Shown here piece after piece: positions 7,357 to 64,000 of a DNA stretch of 64,000 nucleotides; the first letter of the stretch is position 1; each line of letters starts with the position of its first letter. Source of the DNA: an uncultured Acidobacteriota bacterium. GTDB lineage: Bacteria > Acidobacteriota > Polarisedimenticolia > Polarisedimenticolales > DASRJG01. Position numbers and translations under genes: made by a program. The DNA lies in the NCBI GenBank assembly GCA_964511835.1, contig CAZEII010000007.1:54089-118088 (forward strand). The letters are read 5' to 3'. The notes under the pieces are model-generated. The model was not told the origin of the DNA, searched no databases, and saw only the letters and a program-made list of their open reading frames with translations.

Positions 7357-7385
7357 CCGGAATAGGGGACACTCCCCTATTCCGG
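7357..7385. terminator. perfect 29-bp hairpin CCGGAATAGGGGACACTCCCCTATTCCGG. REP-like solo element and putative bidirectional terminator.
   Basis: 13-bp arms with a 3-nt loop. It starts 1 nt after the TAG of the M13 peptidase and contains the last 2 codons plus the TAG (cta, 7377-7379) of the convergent asparaginase gene. The sequence equals the fused termini of the full-length repeat at 61432..61512. Confidence 0.7.
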
Positions 7386-8959: not shown

Positions 8960-10606
8960 ATGAAGCTCATCGAATGCGTTCCGAATTTCAGCGAAGGGAG
9001 CGATCGCGCCGTGATCGACGCGATCGCAGCCGAGATCACCGCGACCCCCGGTGCGGTGCTGTTGGACGTCGATCCGGGAGTCGCCACCAATCGGACGGTC
9101 GTCACGTTCATCGGCGGCCCCGATGCGGTGGAGCAGGCGGCGTTCCGCGCCATCCGGAAGGCCGCGGCAACGATCGACATGACGAAGCATCGCGGCGAGC
9201 ACCCGCGCTTGGGCGCGACCGACGTCTGCCCGTTCGTTCCCGTTCAGGGCGCAACGATGGACGACTGCGTCGCCGTCGCGAAGCGGCTCGGCCGGCGCGT
9301 CGGCGAGGAGCTCGGTATTCCGGTCTACCTCTACGAGGCCGCAGCGACAACCCCGTCGCGCCGCTCGCTCGCGGACATCCGCAAGGGGGAATACGAGGCC
9401 CTGCCCGAGAAGATGAAGGATCCCTCGTTCGCTCCGGATTTCGGTCCCGCCCGGTTCAACTCGAAATCCGGCGCGACCGTCATCGGCGCGCGCGAATTCC
9501 TGATCGCCTACAACGTCAATCTGAACACCCGAGACAAGAAGCTCGCGACCGCCATCGCGCAGGCGATTCGGGAGGCCGGATCCTCGAAGCGCGGGCCCGA
9601 CGGCAAGCTCAGCGTCACACCGGGCCGGTTCAAGGAGTGCCGCGCGGTCGGCTGGTACATCGAGGAGTTCGGTCGGGCGCAAGTCTCGATCAACCTGACG
9701 AATTACAAGATCACGCCGGTTCACGCCGTCTTCGATGCAGTCTGCGAAGAAGCGGAGAAGCTCGGCCTGAGGGTCACGGGATCCGAGCTGGTCGGCCTGA
9801 TTCCGCGCGACGCACTGCTCGCGGCCGGCGACCACTATCTCTCCAAGCAGGGAAAGACGAGCGGAGTGCCCGAAAAGGAGCGCGTCCACACCTCGGTGCT
9901 CTCCCTGGGATTGTCCGAGCTCGCGCCGTTCGACCCCGGTCTCAAGGTGATCGAGTATCGCTACGCCGGAAAGCCGTCGGGGCTCGCCGCGATGAGTCTG
10001 TGCGACTTCGCCGACGAAGTCTCGAGCAGCTCCCCCGCTCCCGGAGGCGGAAGCGTCGCAGCGCTGTGCGGCGGCCTTTCGGCGGCGCTCTCGTCGATGG
10101 TCGCCGCGCTGGCTTGGCCGAAGCCCGGCATGGAGAGCGCTCGCCCTGTGCTGCGGTCCGCAGGAATCGAGGCGCAGTCCTTGAAAGACTGGTTCCTCGC
10201 AGCCGTCGAGCGCGACACCGAGGCTTTCAATGCCGTGCTCGCCGCCCGGCGACTACCGAAGGCGACCGACGACGACCTCGCCGCTCGCGACGCCGCCCTC
10301 GAGCGCGCGAGCCAGGGCGCTGCGCAAGTCCCGCTCGACGTTCTCGAGTCGTCCGTCAGGGCGTTGGAGCTCGCGCTCACGGCTGCCGCGAAGGGTCATC
10401 CAAGCTCGGCGTCGGATGCCGGCGTTGCGGGGGCGTGCGCGCTCGCCGCCGCGGAGGGAGCGTCGCTCAACGTGCGCATCAACACGCCGTCGTTGACCGA
10501 TCGGAAGGCGGCCGAGGATTTCGCACGCCGGCAGTCGAACGCGCTCGCTCGGGCGCGCGACCTGGCTGAGAGAGTTCGCGAGGCCGTCGACCGGGCGCTG
10601 AGCTAG
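8960..10606 (+). CDS. ftcD: bifunctional glutamate formimidoyltransferase / formimidoyltetrahydrofolate cyclodeaminase
   Basis: N-terminus MKLIECVPNFSEGSD is typical of the formiminotransferase domain. The C-terminal helical cyclodeaminase-like part reads (SSSPAPGGGSVAALCGGLSAALSSMV). The internal ATG of track ORF 8918..10606 was chosen as start. Confidence 0.85.
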   Translation: MKLIECVPNFSEGSDRAVIDAIAAEITATPGAVLLDVDPGVATNRTVVTFIGGPDAVEQAAFRAIRKAAATIDMTKHRGEHPRLGATDVCPFVPVQGATMDDCVAVAKRLGRRVGEELGIPVYLYEAAATTPSRRSLADIRKGEYEALPEKMKDPSFAPDFGPARFNSKSGATVIGAREFLIAYNVNLNTRDKKLATAIAQAIREAGSSKRGPDGKLSVTPGRFKECRAVGWYIEEFGRAQVSINLTNYKITPVHAVFDAVCEEAEKLGLRVTGSELVGLIPRDALLAAGDHYLSKQGKTSGVPEKERVHTSVLSLGLSELAPFDPGLKVIEYRYAGKPSGLAAMSLCDFADEVSSSSPAPGGGSVAALCGGLSAALSSMVAALAWPKPGMESARPVLRSAGIEAQSLKDWFLAAVERDTEAFNAVLAARRLPKATDDDLAARDAALERASQGAAQVPLDVLESSVRALELALTAAAKGHPSSASDAGVAGACALAAAEGASLNVRINTPSLTDRKAAEDFARRQSNALARARDLAERVREAVDRALS

Positions 10607-10613
10607 TCGATGA

Positions 10614-11666
10614 TCAGTTCTGGGCTTCAGGCGGCTCGACCATCGAGAGCCGGTAGATCGTTCCGCGCTTGCTACCGATGCGCTCCAGGAGACCCCTGTC
10701 GACGAGGCGGCGGAGGTTGTCCTTGAGTGTGTTCCGATTCGCTCCGGTCGCCGCCATCAAGAGCGACGCGGCCCCGGTTCCGTTCTCGCGGATGGCGTCG
10801 AGGATGGCCCGCTGCAACGGAGGGAGCTCGCGGGCGCGCGTCTCCAAGTCGATCTTGGCTTGCAGTCGCATCGCCAGCGCCTGGAAGGATTCGAGGAAGA
10901 ACGATATCCACGGAGTGAGGTCCGCCTCGTCGGTCCAGATCTTGGTTTGCGCTCCGTCGATCGCGTCGTAGTAGCTGAACCTCATCTCTTCGAAGACGCG
11001 CTCGAGGCTCGCGTAGTCGGCGAAGCCGTACCCCGCACGCCGCAACAAGTGAGGCAGGATCACCCGCGCCGTGCGGCCGTTGGCCCGCTCGAATGGGCTG
11101 ATGGAGGTGTAGTAGATGAAGAACGTCCCCACGACGAGCACAGGGTGATGCTCGCCGCCGCGCATCTCGATCTCGAGCCAGGAGACGAGGTCCTCGATCT
11201 TGTCTTGAAGCAATCGTGGCGGTAAAGTCTGTAGCACTCGTCCCTGGGCGCGGCCTTCGGCATCGAACACTTCGAGATGAAGAGGGGCCTCGCGCAGAGA
11301 GCTCGGGGAGGGAGGATTGCCGGCTTTGCCCAATACGACCGCGTTCACCGCTGCCAGCTCTTCGAGGGTGACGATCGGACTCGAGGCGGGAAACGACCGG
11401 TCGATGGCGGCGGCGTACCCGACCAGCTCCGCCCGTTCCGGGGCGGTAGCGGTCAGGCCCGCGAGGATGGTGCTCACCTCCGACTCGGTGGCCCGTATCC
11501 CGGCGATCCGGCACGAGGCAGCGACGGACTGGACGCGCGCGGCCTGGCGAAGTCGAGCCAGCGCCTCTGGTGAGACGGCCGTACCCCCCGCCCAAATGGT
11601 CCGAAACTGGCCGATTCTAGCTAGCGCTTTGAGGATTTCTGGGTTGACGGGAATTTTCACGTCCAT
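10614..11666 (-). CDS. Fic-family protein with degenerate active-site motif and C-terminal winged-helix domain
   Basis: The Fic core region reads HPVLVVGTFFIYYTSISPFERANGRTARV. The canonical HxFx(D/E)GNGRxxR is replaced by SPFERANGRTAR. The C-terminus LQRAILDAIRENG...LRRLVDRGLLERIGSKRGTIYRL is wHTH-like. Confidence 0.8.
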   Translation of the reverse strand: MDVKIPVNPEILKALARIGQFRTIWAGGTAVSPEALARLRQAARVQSVAASCRIAGIRATESEVSTILAGLTATAPERAELVGYAAAIDRSFPASSPIVTLEELAAVNAVVLGKAGNPPSPSSLREAPLHLEVFDAEGRAQGRVLQTLPPRLLQDKIEDLVSWLEIEMRGGEHHPVLVVGTFFIYYTSISPFERANGRTARVILPHLLRRAGYGFADYASLERVFEEMRFSYYDAIDGAQTKIWTDEADLTPWISFFLESFQALAMRLQAKIDLETRARELPPLQRAILDAIRENGTGAASLLMAATGANRNTLKDNLRRLVDRGLLERIGSKRGTIYRLSMVEPPEAQN

Positions 11667-34940: not shown

Positions 34941-34992
34941 GGCGGCCTCCGGTGGTTCCTCTCCTACGAGAGTACACGGGCATTGCATTCTT

Positions 34993-35017
34993 TGAAGAAA
35001 AAGGGGAGTGTCCCCTT
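34993..35017 (+). repeat. solo arm of the REP/REPIN-like family: GAAGAAAAAGGGGAGTGTCCCCTT (hairpin AAGGGGA-GTG-TCCCCTT)
   Basis: It matches the right arm of the full-length copy at 58033..58060 (GCGAAAAAAAGGGGAGTGTCCCCTTTTCC). It ends directly at the GTG start (35018) of the aminotransferase. Confidence 0.65.
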
Positions 35018-36163
35018 GTGCGGGTCCCGAAGGATCTGAGACCGACGGCGTGGGCGCGGGCCCGTGCGGCGCGCGGGGAGGTGCCGTACGACCTGACCGT
35101 GAGCAATCCGACGATGTGCGGCTTCACGTATCCGCACGGCTTGCTCGACCCTCTCCGCGACCCGTCTGGGCTCCACTACCGGCCGGATCCCAAGGGGTTG
35201 CGCAGCGCGAGAGAGGCCATCGCGCGGGAGTATGGCGCGCGCGGCGTCGATGCCGATCCGGAGCGGATCGTTGTGACCGCGTCGTCGAGCGAGTCGTACT
35301 CGTTCTTGTTCAAGGTGCTGTGCGAGCCGGGCGAGTACGTCCTGGTTCCGACGCCGTCCTACCCGTTGTTCGAGCACTTGGCGGCGCTCGACGGCGTGCG
35401 CGTCTCGCGGTTCGCGCTCGATCCCGCCAACGGCTGGCAACCGGCGTTCCTCGAGATCCGCGCGGTGTCGAGCGCGCGGGCGGCGATCGTCGTCCACCCG
35501 AACAACCCGACGGGCTCTTGGGTCGATCCGGTGTTCGGCGAGCGATTGGTCGAGCGCCCTGGCGCCTTGTCGATCCCCTTGATTGTCGACGAAGTGTTCC
35601 TCGACTACCCGCTTTCAGCGAGCCCTCTGGCCCAGACTTACGCGGCGCGTGAATCGGGGCTGACGTTCACGCTCGGAGGCTTGTCGAAGAGCCGCGGGCT
35701 GCCGCAGCTCAAGTTGTCGTGGATCGTCGCCAGCGGGCCAGACGCCGAGGTGGGACCGATGGTCGACGCGCTGGAATTCGTCGCGGACAGCTACCTCTCG
35801 GTCGGGACGCCGATCTTGGCAGCGCTGCCGGAGATCCTCCACCGCGCGGAGCCCGTCCGCGACGCCATCCTCGCGCGATGCACCGAGAATCTGGCCCAGG
35901 CGCGTGCGCTGACGCGCACCTACCCGGGAGTCGAACTCCTCGAGCCCGGCGGTGGCTGGAGCGCCGTCGTGAGGTTCCCGCGCGTCCTCTCAGAGGAGCG
36001 GCTGGCGGTCGAGCTGCTCGAAACCCACGGCGTCGCCGTGCACCCCGGCTATTTCTTCGATTTCGCGGTGGAGGGGTTCTTCGTCGTCAGCTTGCTCCCG
36101 CTTCCCGGCGTTTTCGAGACCGGCCTCAAGCTGGCGCTCGACGCGATTGCCTCGCGTGTGTAG
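35018..36163 (+). CDS. class I/II pyridoxal-phosphate-dependent aminotransferase
   Basis: VRVPKDLRPTAWARARAARGEVPYDLTVSNPT is the N-terminal pattern of the alanine/aspartate aminotransferase-like family. LGGLSKSRGLPQLKLSW carries the PLP Lys. The GTG start was chosen and is uncertain. Confidence 0.8.
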   Translation: MRVPKDLRPTAWARARAARGEVPYDLTVSNPTMCGFTYPHGLLDPLRDPSGLHYRPDPKGLRSAREAIAREYGARGVDADPERIVVTASSSESYSFLFKVLCEPGEYVLVPTPSYPLFEHLAALDGVRVSRFALDPANGWQPAFLEIRAVSSARAAIVVHPNNPTGSWVDPVFGERLVERPGALSIPLIVDEVFLDYPLSASPLAQTYAARESGLTFTLGGLSKSRGLPQLKLSWIVASGPDAEVGPMVDALEFVADSYLSVGTPILAALPEILHRAEPVRDAILARCTENLAQARALTRTYPGVELLEPGGGWSAVVRFPRVLSEERLAVELLETHGVAVHPGYFFDFAVEGFFVVSLLPLPGVFETGLKLALDAIASRV

Positions 36164-56679: not shown

Positions 56680-57231
56680 TTAAATGAACAGCGTCACGTG
56701 CGCGCGCCGCGCATAAGAGAGGAAAGCGGCGGCGCCGCCGAATTCTACGCCCGGGATGAAGTCGTCCTGGGTGAAGCCGAACACGTCCATGGTCATCTGA
56801 CAGGCGATCATCTGCACGCCGGATTCGCGTACGGCGTCGTGCAGCTCGTGAATCGGCGCGACGTTCTTCTTCGCGAACATCGATTTCATCATCATGGTCG
56901 CCATGCTCTGCATGCCCGGAAGCGCGTTGACGAGCTCGGGGATCGGCATGGGCATCGGCATGCCCGGATTGGCGACGGGCGACACCCTGAGCCTCGACTC
57001 GAAATCCTTGTGGATGACGTTGAGGCCGTAGAACGTGAAAAAGATCGAGGTTTCCATCCCGGCGGCCGCGGCGGCGCTTCCCAGGATCAGCGGTGGGTAG
57101 GCCCAATCGAGCGTTCCCTTCGAGGCGATGATCGCGGCCCGCTTCGCAGCCGGGTCTTTCTTCAGCGCGGCTTCGATCTCTTCGCGGACGATGCGGCGTA
57201 TCGCGGCTTCGTTGAGATCGACGTCGATCAT
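56680..57231 (-). CDS. DsrE/DsrF/DsrH-like family protein (COG2210-type)
   Basis: Internal ATG of track ORF 56680..57777: MIDVDLNEAAIRRIV...AAIIASKGTLDWAYPPLILGSAAAAAGMETSIFFTFYGL. Confidence 0.75.
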   Translation of the reverse strand: MIDVDLNEAAIRRIVREEIEAALKKDPAAKRAAIIASKGTLDWAYPPLILGSAAAAAGMETSIFFTFYGLNVIHKDFESRLRVSPVANPGMPMPMPIPELVNALPGMQSMATMMMKSMFAKKNVAPIHELHDAVRESGVQMIACQMTMDVFGFTQDDFIPGVEFGGAAAFLSYARRAHVTLFI

Positions 57232-57269
57232 GGCGAGCCTCCGAGCGGGATCGATCAGTATAGCGCCGC

Positions 57270-60416
<3,147 letters not shown>

Positions 60417-60423
60417 GAGTCTC

Positions 60424-61977
60424 TCACCCCACCTCTCCTTGCAGGTACCACCGATTCTTCCCCCGATCGAAGAACACCCACAAGTTCTGGCCGTTCTTCG
60501 TCTCGGCGAAGTGGTAATCCCGGAAGATCGGCTGCCTCCACCAATGACCCGACACGATGTAAGGCCCGTTCACCTTCACGACCGGCCCCTGCGCCAGACC
60601 GCGCAGCAGCCAGCCGTCGGGCTCGTGCCGCTCGCGCGGCGGGAGCGGCACCGGCGTCGTGAAGAGGCGGCGGATCAGGCGCGGCTCGTCGACGGTGCGA
60701 GGCTTGGCTTCGGGGAGCGAGGTCACCGGCGCCCAGGCGAAGCGCGCTTCGGGGAGGTGCGCGTCGCGCGGTTCGGCGCGCACGACGGCGTCGTCTCCCA
60801 ACGCCGCCTTCACGCGCGCCAGCGCCCGCGCGCCGGCTTCGAGATCGCGGCGCTTCTTCACGCCGAAGAGCTGGTGCTGCTTTTCGACGGCCGCCACCTC
60901 GCGTGCAACGAGGACGATCTCCATCACGCCGTCGGGGAGCTTCCGCACCGCCTGGAGACGCAGGCGGATCAGCTCGAGCAGGATCTTGGGGACGAGGGTG
61001 GGGGCCGCAGGCTGGATCGATTCGAGGTGCTCGCCCAGCCGCTCGAAGCGGAAGGCGATCTGCAGCTCGGCGAGGGCACGCCCCTTCGCCGCGATCTCGT
61101 CGAGCATCGGGCCGAGCGCCTCTTCGATGCGCGCGACGATGCGCAGCGCGTCGAGCTCGGGATCGTCGAGGATCAGGCGCCGCGTCGCGGGGATGACGGG
61201 ATGCTCGGGGACGAGCGGCTCCGTCAGCGCTCCCGATGCCAAACGATGGAGGCGGCGGACGTCGGGACCAAAGCGGACGCTCACGCCGTCCAGCGGGAGA
61301 TCGACGAATAGACCGACGGTCGTGATGCCCAGCTTCAAGAGCGTGTCGCGCGCTTGCGTGGGAAGCGCGAGCCGGTCGAGGCGGACTTCTCTCGCCGCTG
61401 CACGCTCGATTTCGGGTGTGTCGAAGACGACGGAATAGGGGACACTCCCCTTTTTCTTGCAAAGCTCCCCGGATACCGCTTTGCTGCGAAAAAGGGAAGT
61501 GTCCCCTATTCCCTTGGCGACGACATATACGGCAAAGCGATCAAAGCCCACGACGAGGGATGTGGTGAAGCCCGCGCGGACGACCTCAGCATGCAGCGAA
61601 GATGCCCACTCGGTGAGCGAGCCGAACAAACGCTCGAGCCCCTTGGCGTCGAGCCAGAAGACGCCGGGCTCGTCCCGGCCGGGCTCGACGAACGGCGTGA
61701 AGCGGCGGAGCAGCTCGGTCAGCTGCGCGATCTCGCCGTCGAGATCGCTCTGTGTGACGACGCCGGCACGCAAGCCGGCTGCGAGCGAGAGCCCGGCGGC
61801 GTAGCGCATGCCGGTCGAGATCCCGGCCGCTCGAGCCGCCTCGTTGATCCAGAGGATCGTCCCCTGGGGCGTGTCGGCCGCGACGACGGCGGCGGGATGC
61901 TCGCGCCAGTCCGGATGCTTCCGCAGCAGGAGCTGGAGCGGGAACGCGGGAAGGTCAATGCAGGCCGTCCGGTCCAC
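60424..61977 (-). CDS. imuB: Y-family polymerase-like protein ImuB, carrying an in-frame repeat insertion
   Basis: MDRTACIDLPAFPLQLLLRKHPDWREHPAAVVA. Its position between imuA and dnaE2 fits. Confidence 0.9.
   Translation of the reverse strand: MDRTACIDLPAFPLQLLLRKHPDWREHPAAVVAADTPQGTILWINEAARAAGISTGMRYAAGLSLAAGLRAGVVTQSDLDGEIAQLTELLRRFTPFVEPGRDEPGVFWLDAKGLERLFGSLTEWASSLHAEVVRAGFTTSLVVGFDRFAVYVVAKGIGDTSLFRSKAVSGELCKKKGSVPYSVVFDTPEIERAAAREVRLDRLALPTQARDTLLKLGITTVGLFVDLPLDGVSVRFGPDVRRLHRLASGALTEPLVPEHPVIPATRRLILDDPELDALRIVARIEEALGPMLDEIAAKGRALAELQIAFRFERLGEHLESIQPAAPTLVPKILLELIRLRLQAVRKLPDGVMEIVLVAREVAAVEKQHQLFGVKKRRDLEAGARALARVKAALGDDAVVRAEPRDAHLPEARFAWAPVTSLPEAKPRTVDEPRLIRRLFTTPVPLPPRERHEPDGWLLRGLAQGPVVKVNGPYIVSGHWWRQPIFRDYHFAETKNGQNLWVFFDRGKNRWYLQGEVG
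61432..61512 (+). repeat. full-length REPIN/RPE-like palindromic element, copy B (81 bp), inside imuB codons 156-182
   Basis: GGAATAGGGGACACTCCCCTTTTTCTTGCAAAGCTCCCCGGATACCGCTTTGCTGCGAAAAAGGGAAGTGTCCCCTATTCC. Translated in imuB as GIGDTSLFRSKAVSGELCKKKGSVPYS. Confidence 0.9.
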
Positions 61978-62587
61978 GACACACCTCCGTGATGCTCCAG
62001 GTTTTCCCCCCGCGCTTGTCCTTCAGCGCGACGGCCGCGCAGCTGAAGCGGCCCCCATCGCCGCGCACGCGCGAAGCGGTGTGCGCGCGCAGCGTCACGA
62101 GCGGGCCCAAGGACGGCCGCGCGGCGTCCTTGTCGGTCAGGCAGACGATCGCCGCGGCGTGCTGCCGCGCCAGCATCGCCAGGCGCGAGGTGGCGTGCAT
62201 GGGGAGGCGCGCGTCGGCGCCCAGGTCGAGCACGACGAGGCCGAACGCCCCCGAGCGAACGAGAAGATCCGCCGCCTTCGCCGCCGTGATCGCATCCTTC
62301 GCCCACACGACGGGGAGCGCCGTGAGATCGGCGCCAGCGTCCGCGGCATCGGGGGGATAGAACGGCGCATCCCTGCGCCCGATCCACGCCGCAGGCTCCC
62401 CGCGGCGCTGCGCATCGATGACCCATCGGAACGCGAGCGTCAACGGAGCCCCCGCGACCGAGGCGGATATCTCGATGAGACCAGAGAGGGAACATTCCCC
62501 TTTTTCTTGCAAAGCTCCCCGGATACCGCTTTGCGACGAAAAAGGGGAATGTTCCCTCTCGACCCTCTCCAAAGAATGCCCCCTCAT
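61955..62587 (-). CDS. imuA: ImuA-like (RecA/SulA-fold) translesion-synthesis accessory protein
   Basis: Internal ATG of track ORF 61955..63520 that overlaps the lexA stop (ATGA). GLIEISASVAGAPLTLAFRWVIDAQRRGEPAAWIGRR...GAFGLVVLDLG resembles the degenerate P-loop/RecA-like core of ImuA. The position between lexA and imuB fits. Confidence 0.75.
   Translation of the reverse strand: MRGHSLERVEREHSPFSSQSGIRGALQEKGECSLSGLIEISASVAGAPLTLAFRWVIDAQRRGEPAAWIGRRDAPFYPPDAADAGADLTALPVVWAKDAITAAKAADLLVRSGAFGLVVLDLGADARLPMHATSRLAMLARQHAAAIVCLTDKDAARPSLGPLVTLRAHTASRVRGDGGRFSCAAVALKDKRGGKTWSITEVCRGPDGLH
62484..62560 (+). repeat. full-length REPIN/RPE-like palindromic element, copy C (77 bp), at imuA codons ~10-35
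   Basis: GAGAGGGAACATTCCCCTTTTTCTTGCAAAGCTCCCCGGATACCGCTTTGCGACGAAAAAGGGGAATGTTCCCTCTC. In the imuA frame it reads EREHSPFSSQSGIRGALQEKGECSLS. Confidence 0.9.
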
Positions 62588-63189
62588 TCCAGTGACCTCC
62601 GCACTTCCACGACTCTGCCCAACACCTTGACGTCGGAGGGCTGAGGAACGATCGGTTGGTAGGCGTCGTTTTCGGGGTGAAGCTCGACGCGGCCGCGCTT
62701 CAGGTGGAGGCGCTTGATCGTCGCTTCGTCCCCCACCATCGCGACGACGATGTCGCCGGACGACGCGGTCGGCTGGCGGCGCACGATCACGACGTCCCCT
62801 TCGAGGATGCCGGCGTCTTTCATGCTGTCGCCGCGGACGCGCAGGCTGAACAGCTCGCCGGGTTGGCGGCGCGTCTGCACGGGGAGGTGCCCTTCGAGAT
62901 CTTCGACCGCCAGATCGAGCGGACCCGCGGGGACGCGGCCCAAGAGCGGCACCATCACCGTCGGCGCCTCGCCCCGGCCGGGCAACCTGAACCCCCGGGC
63001 GATGCCAGGGTCTTTCTTCAAGCGCCCCTCTTCGACCAGGCCGTCCAAGTGTTCCCGTGCCGTCTGCGGGGAACGGAAGCCGAAGGCTTCCATGACCTCG
63101 CGCACCGTCGGGGGCCGCCCCCCGGCGAGGCGGTCGCGGACGTAGCGAAAGACTTTTTCGCGCGTCTGGCCGGCGGGTGTGCGTCCCAT
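62584..63189 (-). CDS. lexA: LexA repressor (S24 peptidase)
   Basis: N-terminal wHTH (PTVREVMEAFGFRSPQTAREHL), LLGRVPAGPL (Ala-Gly cleavage site), GDSMKDAGI (Ser) and EATIKRL (Lys). GAAGGAGGG lies upstream of the ATG. Confidence 0.95.
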   Translation of the reverse strand: MGRTPAGQTREKVFRYVRDRLAGGRPPTVREVMEAFGFRSPQTAREHLDGLVEEGRLKKDPGIARGFRLPGRGEAPTVMVPLLGRVPAGPLDLAVEDLEGHLPVQTRRQPGELFSLRVRGDSMKDAGILEGDVVIVRRQPTASSGDIVVAMVGDEATIKRLHLKRGRVELHPENDAYQPIVPQPSDVKVLGRVVEVRRSLE

Positions 63190-63229
63190 GCCTGCCCTCC
63201 TTCAAGAACCCGTGCGTGGGATCAATATA

Positions 63230-63245
63230 CCATACAAATGTATGG
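63230..63245. promoter_or_regulatory. perfect 16-bp palindrome CCATACAAATGTATGG, candidate LexA operator in the lexA / small-peptide divergent region
   Basis: 7-bp arms with an AA centre, 41-56 nt upstream of the lexA ATG. On the lexA strand it is followed immediately by TATATT (a -10-like hexamer, 63224-63229). It sits in the only AT-rich patch of the region. Confidence 0.5.
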
Positions 63246-63331
63246 TGTACACAAAAACAACAATCCGCAGGAAAATTCTCCCAGGGCTTCTGACGTATGC
63301 TCGGAAACCCTTTGGAATGGAGGAGACTCCC

Positions 63332-63523
63332 ATGAAGAAAGTCGTCCGTCTCGTCGCGACGTTGGCCTTCGTCGGTTCGATCGGGCTCGGGATCACTGCC
63401 CTGCTCAGCACGCCGGTCAAGGCGGTCGACAACCCCTGCGATCCCACGTTCCAGATGCTGAGGAATTGCAGGGCCCAGCACGGGAAGTGGGACAGCTCGT
63501 GCTGCTGCTGTCGCCTGCATTGA
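63332..63523 (+). CDS. small secreted Cys-rich protein (63 aa precursor)
   Basis: GGAGGAG lies 7 nt upstream of the ATG. MKKVVRLVATLAFVGSIGLGITALLSTPVKA is a signal peptide. The predicted mature part, VDNPCDPTFQMLRNCRAQHGKWDSSCCCCRLH, has 6 Cys including a CCCC run. Confidence 0.6.
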   Translation: MKKVVRLVATLAFVGSIGLGITALLSTPVKAVDNPCDPTFQMLRNCRAQHGKWDSSCCCCRLH

Positions 63524-63579
63524 TCGTGTGGCTGGAATCGGCGAGAACCCAGTCCCCCGCCCTTTCGTAAGCTCCTCCG

Positions 63580-64000
63580 ATGAATCCCCGGCGGTTCGCC
63601 TCGGCGCTCGTCCTTGTGATCCCCCTCGCAGGGCGGGCGCCGGCGGCCGCCGCGGACCTCACCCCTGACGCCGCCTACGCTCTCGTCGTCCGGTCGCCGC
63701 TGTCGCGCGACCCGTTCCCCAAGCCCGAGGAGCTGACGGCGGCTCGCAAGGCGCTGGAGCCGCAAGCGACGCGGGATCCGAAATCGGCGCGCTGGGCCTA
63801 CGCCCTTGCGCACGTCGCCAATGCCGAGGCCGAACAGGCCAAGGGCGACGAGCAAAAAGCCAAGAGGAAGGAAGCGCTGGAGCGGTTCCAGCACGCCGCC
63901 GAGCTTCAGCCGAAGGACGCCGACAACCAGTTCTGGATCGGGAACGCGGCGTTCGACCATGTCGACGACGTCGGCATGCTCTCGCAGATGTCGCTCGCAT
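63580..64000 (+). CDS. secreted helical/TPR-like protein, C-terminal part lies outside the window
   Basis: Absent from the ORF track because there is no stop in the window. The ATG at 63580 gives MNPRRFASALVLVIPLAGRAPAAAADLTPD...KSARWAYALAHVANAEAEQAKGDEQKAKRKEALERFQHAAELQPKDADNQFWIGNAAF. Confidence 0.5.
   Translation, partial: MNPRRFASALVLVIPLAGRAPAAAADLTPDAAYALVVRSPLSRDPFPKPEELTAARKALEPQATRDPKSARWAYALAHVANAEAEQAKGDEQKAKRKEALERFQHAAELQPKDADNQFWIGNAAFDHVDDVGMLSQMSLA

Follow-up and report, generated by a model that had tools for sequence, protein, structure and literature searches.

The window analysed here, that is the whole 64-kb stretch of an uncultured Acidobacteriota genome (64,000 nucleotides of contig CAZEII010000007.1), contains at positions 61432-61512 an 81-nt near-perfect palindromic repeat, called copy B below, which is translated on the minus strand as codons 156-182 of imuB. 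Copy B is a member of a dispersed palindromic family, similar to dimers of repetitive extragenic palindromic (REP) sequences or to REPINs; it very probably entered imuB in the ancestor of the clade and has since been inherited, flipped, eroded or lost. The members of the family consist of two self-complementary 25-nt units carrying the motif GGGGACAC, inverted around a small conserved hairpin, and are found in Acidobacteriota related to Candidatus Polarisedimenticolaceae. One copy would have entered imuB in the ancestor of the whole clade, at the palm loop equivalent to the KPxG loop of the Y-family polymerases, where it would be translated and tolerated because ImuB is non-catalytic there, the length of the insertion is a multiple of three and no stop codon is introduced. 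After its entry, the element would have been transmitted vertically, its arms being kept complementary and its centre repeatedly inverted in place, with erosion or clean loss in many lineages.

Copy B is organized as GGAATAGGGGACACTCCCCTTTTTC-TT-GCAAAGC-TCCCCGGATACC-GCTTTGC-TGC-GAAAAAGGGAAGTGTCCCCTATTCC. The left arm (GGAATAGGGGACACTCCCCTTTTTC, 61432-61456) is self-complementary in itself (GGGGA-CAC-TCCCC) and contains the GGGGACAC motif, and the right arm (GAAAAAGGGAAGTGTCCCCTATTCC, 61488-61512) pairs with it at 24 of 25 positions. The inner hairpin (61459-61484) has the stem GCAAAGC/GCTTTGC and a 12-nt loop, TCCCCGGATACC, at 61466-61477; this region is the asymmetric centre of the element and is found inverted in some orthologues. 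The 14-nt termini are exact reverse complements of each other, the 14-mer GGAATAGGGGACAC occurring without mismatch at 61432 on the plus strand and at 61499 on the minus strand, and 11 times, for 2.9 expected, when up to three mismatches are allowed. Folded as single-stranded DNA, the 81 nt reach -30.1 kcal/mol (z = -10.1), a value beaten by none of 200 shuffled sequences.

Across copy B, the ImuB protein reads ...VYVVAK-GIGDTSLFRSKAVSGELCKKKGSVPYS-VVFD..., G156 being encoded by 61512-61510 and S182 by 61434-61432, and the opposite strand is translated without any stop as GIGDTPLFLAKLPGYRFAAKKGSVPYS. Coordinates, termini and translation of the open reading frame all agree with the first-pass annotation of this DNA, which had described an 81-bp palindromic block at ImuB residues 156-182, open on both strands. 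That annotation had also called the block an exact 27-codon insertion. The length of the palindrome is indeed 27 codons, but what the window copy adds is a net 22 codons and not a clean 27, because five codons of the left junction (QRGRQ in the orthologous locus L002) were lost. Indeed, the orthologues with an empty site have 495 residues and those with the full insertion 522, compared with 517 for the window protein. The loss is partly common to the nearest relative, L005, and the two terminal codons of the palindrome, GGA and TCC, sit at native or junction residue positions. The true boundaries of the insertion in the window genome are thus blurred by this five-codon junction loss.

The alignment of ImuB orthologues demonstrates that the block behaves as an insertion in the Y-family-like domain, as had been proposed. 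At the site of copy B, about 60 ImuB clusters with 53-67% identity show 'A(K/R)x-RRG-VHV' and nothing extra, the DNA of the L001 site is empty, and in the profile alignment to REV1 the ImuB residues 'akrg' at this site match a short palm loop, KAKPDG. In the active Y-family enzymes, the lysine of this KPxG loop touches the incoming nucleotide (compare K159 of Dpo4). A homologous 27-residue block devoid of any nucleotide palindrome would have pointed to a native segment of the protein; instead, all five orthologues of the window form for which the DNA was fetched are palindromic, and two more distant orthologues possess different palindromes at the same ImuB site. In the AlphaFold model, built with 79 homologues, the predicted local distance difference test (pLDDT) score falls below 50 only at residues 161-178, between a helix (147-162) and a strand (182-184), and exceeds 90 in the flanks on both sides. 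Copy B is therefore predicted by this model to be translated as a disordered surface loop.

The host protein, which belongs to the SOS mutagenesis system, is itself a Y-family-like polymerase without the catalytic residues. The 517-residue product of imuB (60424-61977, minus strand) matches the Pfam family IMS with E = 9e-11, and profile searches recover REV1, Pol IV and Pol eta. Its AlphaFold model adopts the Y-family fold, the best Foldseek matches being Dpo4, Dbh, DinB, iota and Rev1, with E values down to 6e-21. The sequence IDLPAF replaces the Y-family DxD, with a nearly invariant P10 aligned to the second aspartate of the REV1 motif VDMDCFF, and LDA, with an invariant A111, replaces DE. 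The lack of the catalytic carboxylates is the established defining trait of ImuB. A conserved QxxLF motif is present at residues 367-371, and the orthologues bearing a name are attributed to Candidatus Polarisedimenticolaceae (Acidobacteriota).

Copy B belongs to a repeat family dispersed in several genomes. Scanning one genome per GTDB species with the loop-core pattern RRGCTCCCCGGATACCGCYY gave at least 94 stretches, and five Acidobacteriota metagenome-assembled genomes (MAGs) had at least 21, 14, 9, 8 and 7 matches, respectively. A search by nhmmer of the window and all the fetched loci collected 69 full-length copies, of which the scanned MAG loci supplied 56. The units occur singly and as inverted dimers of 70-87 nt which form a larger hairpin, as expected of REPs and REPINs. 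The placement is also that of REPs and REPINs: judged by a crude test of open frames and of G+C content at third codon positions, about 44 of the 47 copies with usable flanks are not carried by an uninterrupted coding frame, and convergent genes flank many of the copies. Two coding exceptions could be identified among these dispersed copies, and both occupy the dnaE2 site, in the loci L080 and L100 of other MAGs. The search of the 57000-64000 region of the window against Rfam 15 returned only generic hairpin matches of miRNA-precursor type, far below the gathering score. We also observed a full copy (L037, 6415-6484) on a 514-kb contig labelled 'uncultured Actinomycetes bacterium', which could be due to mislabelling, misbinning or horizontal transfer.

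Two other full copies are present in the window, in the same operon. Copy A (57979-58059) is in frame within the HHH_6 region of dnaE2, whose coding sequence is on the minus strand, and is read in a frame different from that of copy B (EKGTLPFFSQSSPDTALRKNRGVSPF); this HHH_6 region has 109 residues for 88 profile positions. The same dnaE2 site is filled in L003, L004 and L005, in L001 by a nested variant, and in L080 and L100, and has no element in L006. Copy C (62484-62560) lies between the stop codon of lexA (62584) and the conserved core of ImuA (LIEISAS...). It is in frame, and would occupy codons 9-36 approximately in the third frame, if translation of imuA starts from the ATG at 62587, whose overlap with the lexA stop codon reads ATGA. 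This arrangement is repeated in L005, and L004 and L006 have no element there. The three copies thus use a different reading frame in each of dnaE2, imuB and imuA, and 15 of the 18 copy-by-frame combinations are free of stops. A solo unit of 25 nt (GGAATAGGGGACACTCCCCTATTCC, 7359-7383), located between convergent genes, has exactly the GGAATAGGGGACAC terminus of copy B, and further solo units of 25-30 nt were found at 34990-35018 of the window, in L004 (3077-3106) and in L003 (11460-11487). These solo units resemble bidirectional terminator hairpins placed directly after stop codons.

The block could have been viewed as a native, lineage-specific loop of ImuB, the palindromy of which arose in place, with the other copies derived from it or coincidental, since it is translated and present in many orthologues. 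We give next to no credence to this explanation, which is contradicted by the dozens of near-identical copies at unrelated, mostly intergenic loci of several genomes, by the three different frames used in imuA, imuB and dnaE2, and by the existence of the empty and nested states described hereafter.

The comparison of orthologous loci makes it possible to follow the fate of the imuB copy. The site is empty in L001 (AAG GGG AAG CGC GCC GTG CGC CTC TTC), and L002 and L003 have the full 27-codon insertion in the window orientation. L004 and L006 have identical junctions and an inverted asymmetric centre, bulges included. In L005, the imuB element is itself interrupted, precisely at its centre, by a second one (10455-10645), resulting in an ImuB of 545 residues. 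In a neighbour-joining tree of ImuB built with the insert masked, the 43 orthologue clusters of the crown clade comprise 16 full elements in the window orientation, 9 full elements with an inverted centre, 1 nested element, 14 remnants (e.g. KKGSVPF) and 3 clean empty sites, whose nesting inside the clade is robust. P0027, one of those with an empty site, groups with the element-bearing P0002 and P0004, with other element-bearers outside, in 96-100% of 100 bootstraps. Since P0027 is nested among element-bearers, its empty state is secondary, and is a clean loss or an allelic replacement. The precise empty site that the first-pass annotation had suggested looking for in close strains thus exists (L001/P0027), but the insertion is old and common to dozens of clusters, and is not a recent event at the strain level. 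Furthermore, the imuB genes of P0043 (L102, 969-2534) and P0049 (L103, 6001-7518), at about 73-75% identity, contain different near-perfect palindromes at the same site, GGGAACAGCTACCCTTTTCCCGC..GCGGGAAAAGGGTAGCTGTCCCC in L102 and GGAAAAGGTGTCAGGCACCTTTTTG..CAAAAAGGTGCCTGACACCTTTTCC, with 25 uninterrupted pairs, in L103. This ImuB site is either a recurrent target or the seat of an old insertion co-evolving as a hairpin.

The centre of the element has flipped in place: L003 and L004 have nucleotide-identical junctions and opposite centre orientations. Such a pair is what would be expected of an intragenic inverton, in which the centre would flip reversibly between the 25-bp arms within a population and ImuB would toggle between two 10-residue loops, RSKAVSGELC and LAKLPGYRFA. 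The interspersion of the orientations on the tree, which demands at least about 6 switches, the absence of stops in both orientations and the precedent of documented intragenic recoding invertons (PMC10028968) go in the same direction. On the other hand, the two orientations were observed solely by comparing orthologues of different samples, the neighbourhood showed no invertase, and the peptide of the loop, for which disorder is predicted, is not conserved. Rare template switching, or gene conversion by other copies of the family in either orientation, would also explain the flips and would be equally able to produce them, and we consider a functional inverton very improbable.

Within the element, the feature that is maintained is the pairing of the arms. 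Pair-keeping changes on both sides affect 27 of the 31 stem pairs in an alignment of 63 copies; the loop owes its invariance in these copies to the scan pattern, which imposed it. Relative to L005 and L002, the window copy shows symmetric substitutions: on the left AAA has become ATA, on the right TTT has become TAT, and GGA faces TCC. They yield a perfect palindrome whose termini are identical to the solo unit at 7359. Between orthologues, the divergence within the element is similar to or greater than that of the whole gene and, unlike in the rest of imuB, is not concentrated at third codon positions over these 27 codons. Purifying selection on the 27-residue peptide was considered and rejected on this codon-position pattern, limited as it is to 27 codons. 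Taken with the compensatory stem changes, the pattern means that the hairpin is preserved, and not the peptide. Template switching at quasipalindromes is a described process (PMC7202029, PMC7954356), and the complementarity of the stem would be kept by it or by gene conversion with other copies of the family, which may pair either way.

The complementarity often goes beyond the element. Of 54 dispersed copies, 20 have a palindrome that runs at least 12 nt past the conserved core, in a sequence proper to each copy, and the flanks are complementary at 12.5 of 20 positions on average, compared with 6.5 when the flanks of different copies are paired. This extension is often a second GGGGACA layer. 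A larger palindrome is thus centred exactly on the element. Extensions of 12-20 nt or longer are found in L007, L013, L015, L024, L043, L049, L051, L072, L082, L090, L091 and L096. Together with the nested copies of L005 and L001, the extended palindromes suggest an insertion at hairpin apices or an outward growth of the palindromes.

The maintenance of the stems could also mean that the hairpins are regulatory structures, selected to throttle the transcription, the translation or the mRNA stability of a mutagenic operon. Such a selection would account both for the preserved palindromy, including the compensatory changes, and for the presence of all the full copies of the window in this one operon. 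The imuB mRNA folds over a 105-nt stretch into a hairpin of -62.7 kcal/mol (z = -9.2, beaten by none of 200 shuffles), the arms are scored as terminator-like, with T tracts behind the hairpins, and the three sites hold elements in several orthologous operons. Nevertheless, the imuB copy is eroded or lost in 17 of the 43 crown orthologues, on the sense strand no T tract follows the hairpin of copy B, and the orientation of the loop varies among the three operon copies and among orthologues, which makes an orientation-specific role of the RNA unlikely. Most members of the family are intergenic, and these intergenic copies also keep their stems, so that the maintenance may be mechanistic. A regulatory role, which nothing in these data requires, is in our opinion improbable, and we retain the reading of copy B as a dispersed repeat inherited from an ancestral insertion.

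The family is probably mobilised by a single-strand, hairpin-recognising transposase of the HUH type, and its insertion in imuB would be close to neutral. The arm motif GGGGACAC agrees with GGGGWSAS, the consensus of the inverted repeats flanking the RAYT-like TIRYT transposase genes, of which a distinct acidobacterial group is known (PMC3733652). This resemblance makes a connection of the family to the TIRYT transposases a lead. Neither the window nor about 100 other loci yielded a RAYT or TIRYT homologue (HUH Y1), and a regular expression for the HUH/Y motif gave no candidate among all the open reading frames of the window and of the fetched loci. An open reading frame located between two close copies in L046 was considered as a transposase and discarded, its product being secreted or lipoprotein-like by inspection.

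Several observations weigh against our interpretation. In about 870 kb searched by tblastn, the E. coli RayT had no match with E below 1, and six acidobacterial TIRYT and one from Geobacter (supplement of PMC3733652) had none with E below 0.08. In 80 metagenomic TIRYT loci of other Acidobacteria, the element was found in none and GGGGWSAS was not enriched. No consistent target-site duplication was seen at the ends of the copies, whose flanks are often mutual inverted repeats; the GCAC and CAC at the imuB junctions were tried as duplications and dismissed, as they are inconsistent between orthologues. A constant GTAG/CGTC tag was not found either, the bases preceding GGGG being variable (AAAA, AATA, GTA, GAGA, ...) and GTAG occurring in few copies. 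The copies are indeed dispersed in related genomes, in agreement with the label 'selfish' given by the first-pass annotation, but no mobilising enzyme was found, and both this label and the mobility of the family would follow from the dispersal only. Moreover, the nested clean empty site could result from allelic recombination instead of excision, and the different palindromes at the same site allow repeated independent insertions as well as one ancient event. Finally, the three full copies of the 64 kb are all in one 5.6-kb operon, a clustering that simple neutrality leaves unexplained.

A bolder view of this clustering, which we regard as improbable, is that the imuA, imuB and dnaE2 palindromes are not passive passengers but hairpin modules, self-maintaining and invertible, which are specifically attracted or retained by the SOS mutasome operon. 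Possible routes would be a hairpin-targeting single-strand transposition into the induced, LexA-controlled operon, or a throttling or phase variation of the mutasome by the hairpins. If true, this would explain mechanistically why, as has long been noted, DNA-repair genes contain an excess of intragenic REPs.

REPs and REP dimers inside genes, the dimers encoding 20-30 residues, have been described by Di Nocera, De Gregorio and Rocco in 2013 (PMC3733652). Their hosts include many genes of DNA synthesis and repair, among which dnaE2 is named (Oter_4053 of O. terrae and Swit_1119 of S. wittichii), and imuB is not mentioned in that paper. The present family shares with those REPs and terminal inverted repeats (TIRs) the short self-complementary units, single or in inverted dimers, located mostly downstream of genes or between convergent genes, and also the translated intragenic copies, the repair-gene hosts including dnaE2, and an arm motif comprised within GGGGWSAS. 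It differs from them by the absence of an invariant GTAG/CGTC tag, by imuB as a host, by its phylum and lineage and by a central hairpin with a 12-nt loop which is specific to it, and no TIRYT was found beside any of its copies. As in the REPINs of Bertels and Rainey (2011, PMC3116915), two inverted units and a spacer form one long hairpin, dozens of copies exist per genome, vertical persistence is observed and there is no target-site duplication. Unlike in the REPINs mobilised by RAYTs, the units are palindromic themselves, many copies are centred in longer copy-specific palindromes, and the RAYT link is only a candidate one. Like the miniature inverted-repeat transposable elements of the DDE type, the elements are small, non-coding, dispersed in the genome and bounded by terminal inverted repeats; unlike them, they are nearly all hairpin, with neither a target-site duplication nor a related autonomous insertion sequence seen.

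The Rickettsia palindromic elements (RPEs) are reported to lie in frame in functional protein genes (Ogata et al. 2000). These RPEs, also summarised in PMC3733652, are the classic translated analogue, being expressed as extra surface segments and readable in several frames. The present family has no sequence relationship with them; RPEs measure about 100-150 bp and reside in reduced AT-rich genomes, whereas the family described here is overwhelmingly intergenic.

This type of insertion in repair genes is thus already known, and the new elements are the family and its host gene imuB. What stands out is that all three mutasome genes are apparently hit, that inversion in place and clean loss are documented, and that the palindrome is actively maintained. 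ImuB, and apparently the three mutasome genes together, join the short list of repair genes with translated palindromic repeats, in a little-studied acidobacterial lineage. The metagenomic orthologues reveal the life of one intragenic copy, from gain through inversion, nesting and hairpin-preserving change to erosion and clean loss. This series constitutes a natural test set for the upkeep of intragenic palindromes and for the over-representation of repair genes among their hosts. From a practical point of view, it is also a warning for annotation: in these genomes, ImuB, ImuA and DnaE2 contain about 25 residues derived from repeats.

The operon consists of four consecutive genes of the minus strand, the neighbours of imuB being assigned by Pfam matches: lexA (62584-63189), imuA (61955-62587), whose ATG overlaps the lexA stop codon, imuB and dnaE2 (57270-60416). 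The gene order lexA-imuA-imuB-dnaE2 is identical in L003-L006. In the window there is no gene between imuB and dnaE2; some orthologous operons possess a small extra open reading frame there (L001, 2075-2389; L002, 2114-2428; L004, 11641-12036), with a 104-residue product without Pfam match in L001 and L002, and a gene of the 23S_rRNA_IVP family in L004. Upstream of lexA, at 63224-63262 on the minus strand, an AT-rich promoter-like sequence, TGTACA-16-TATATT, overlaps the palindrome ACCATACATTTGTATGGT, which, judging from its sequence, is a candidate LexA box of this lineage.

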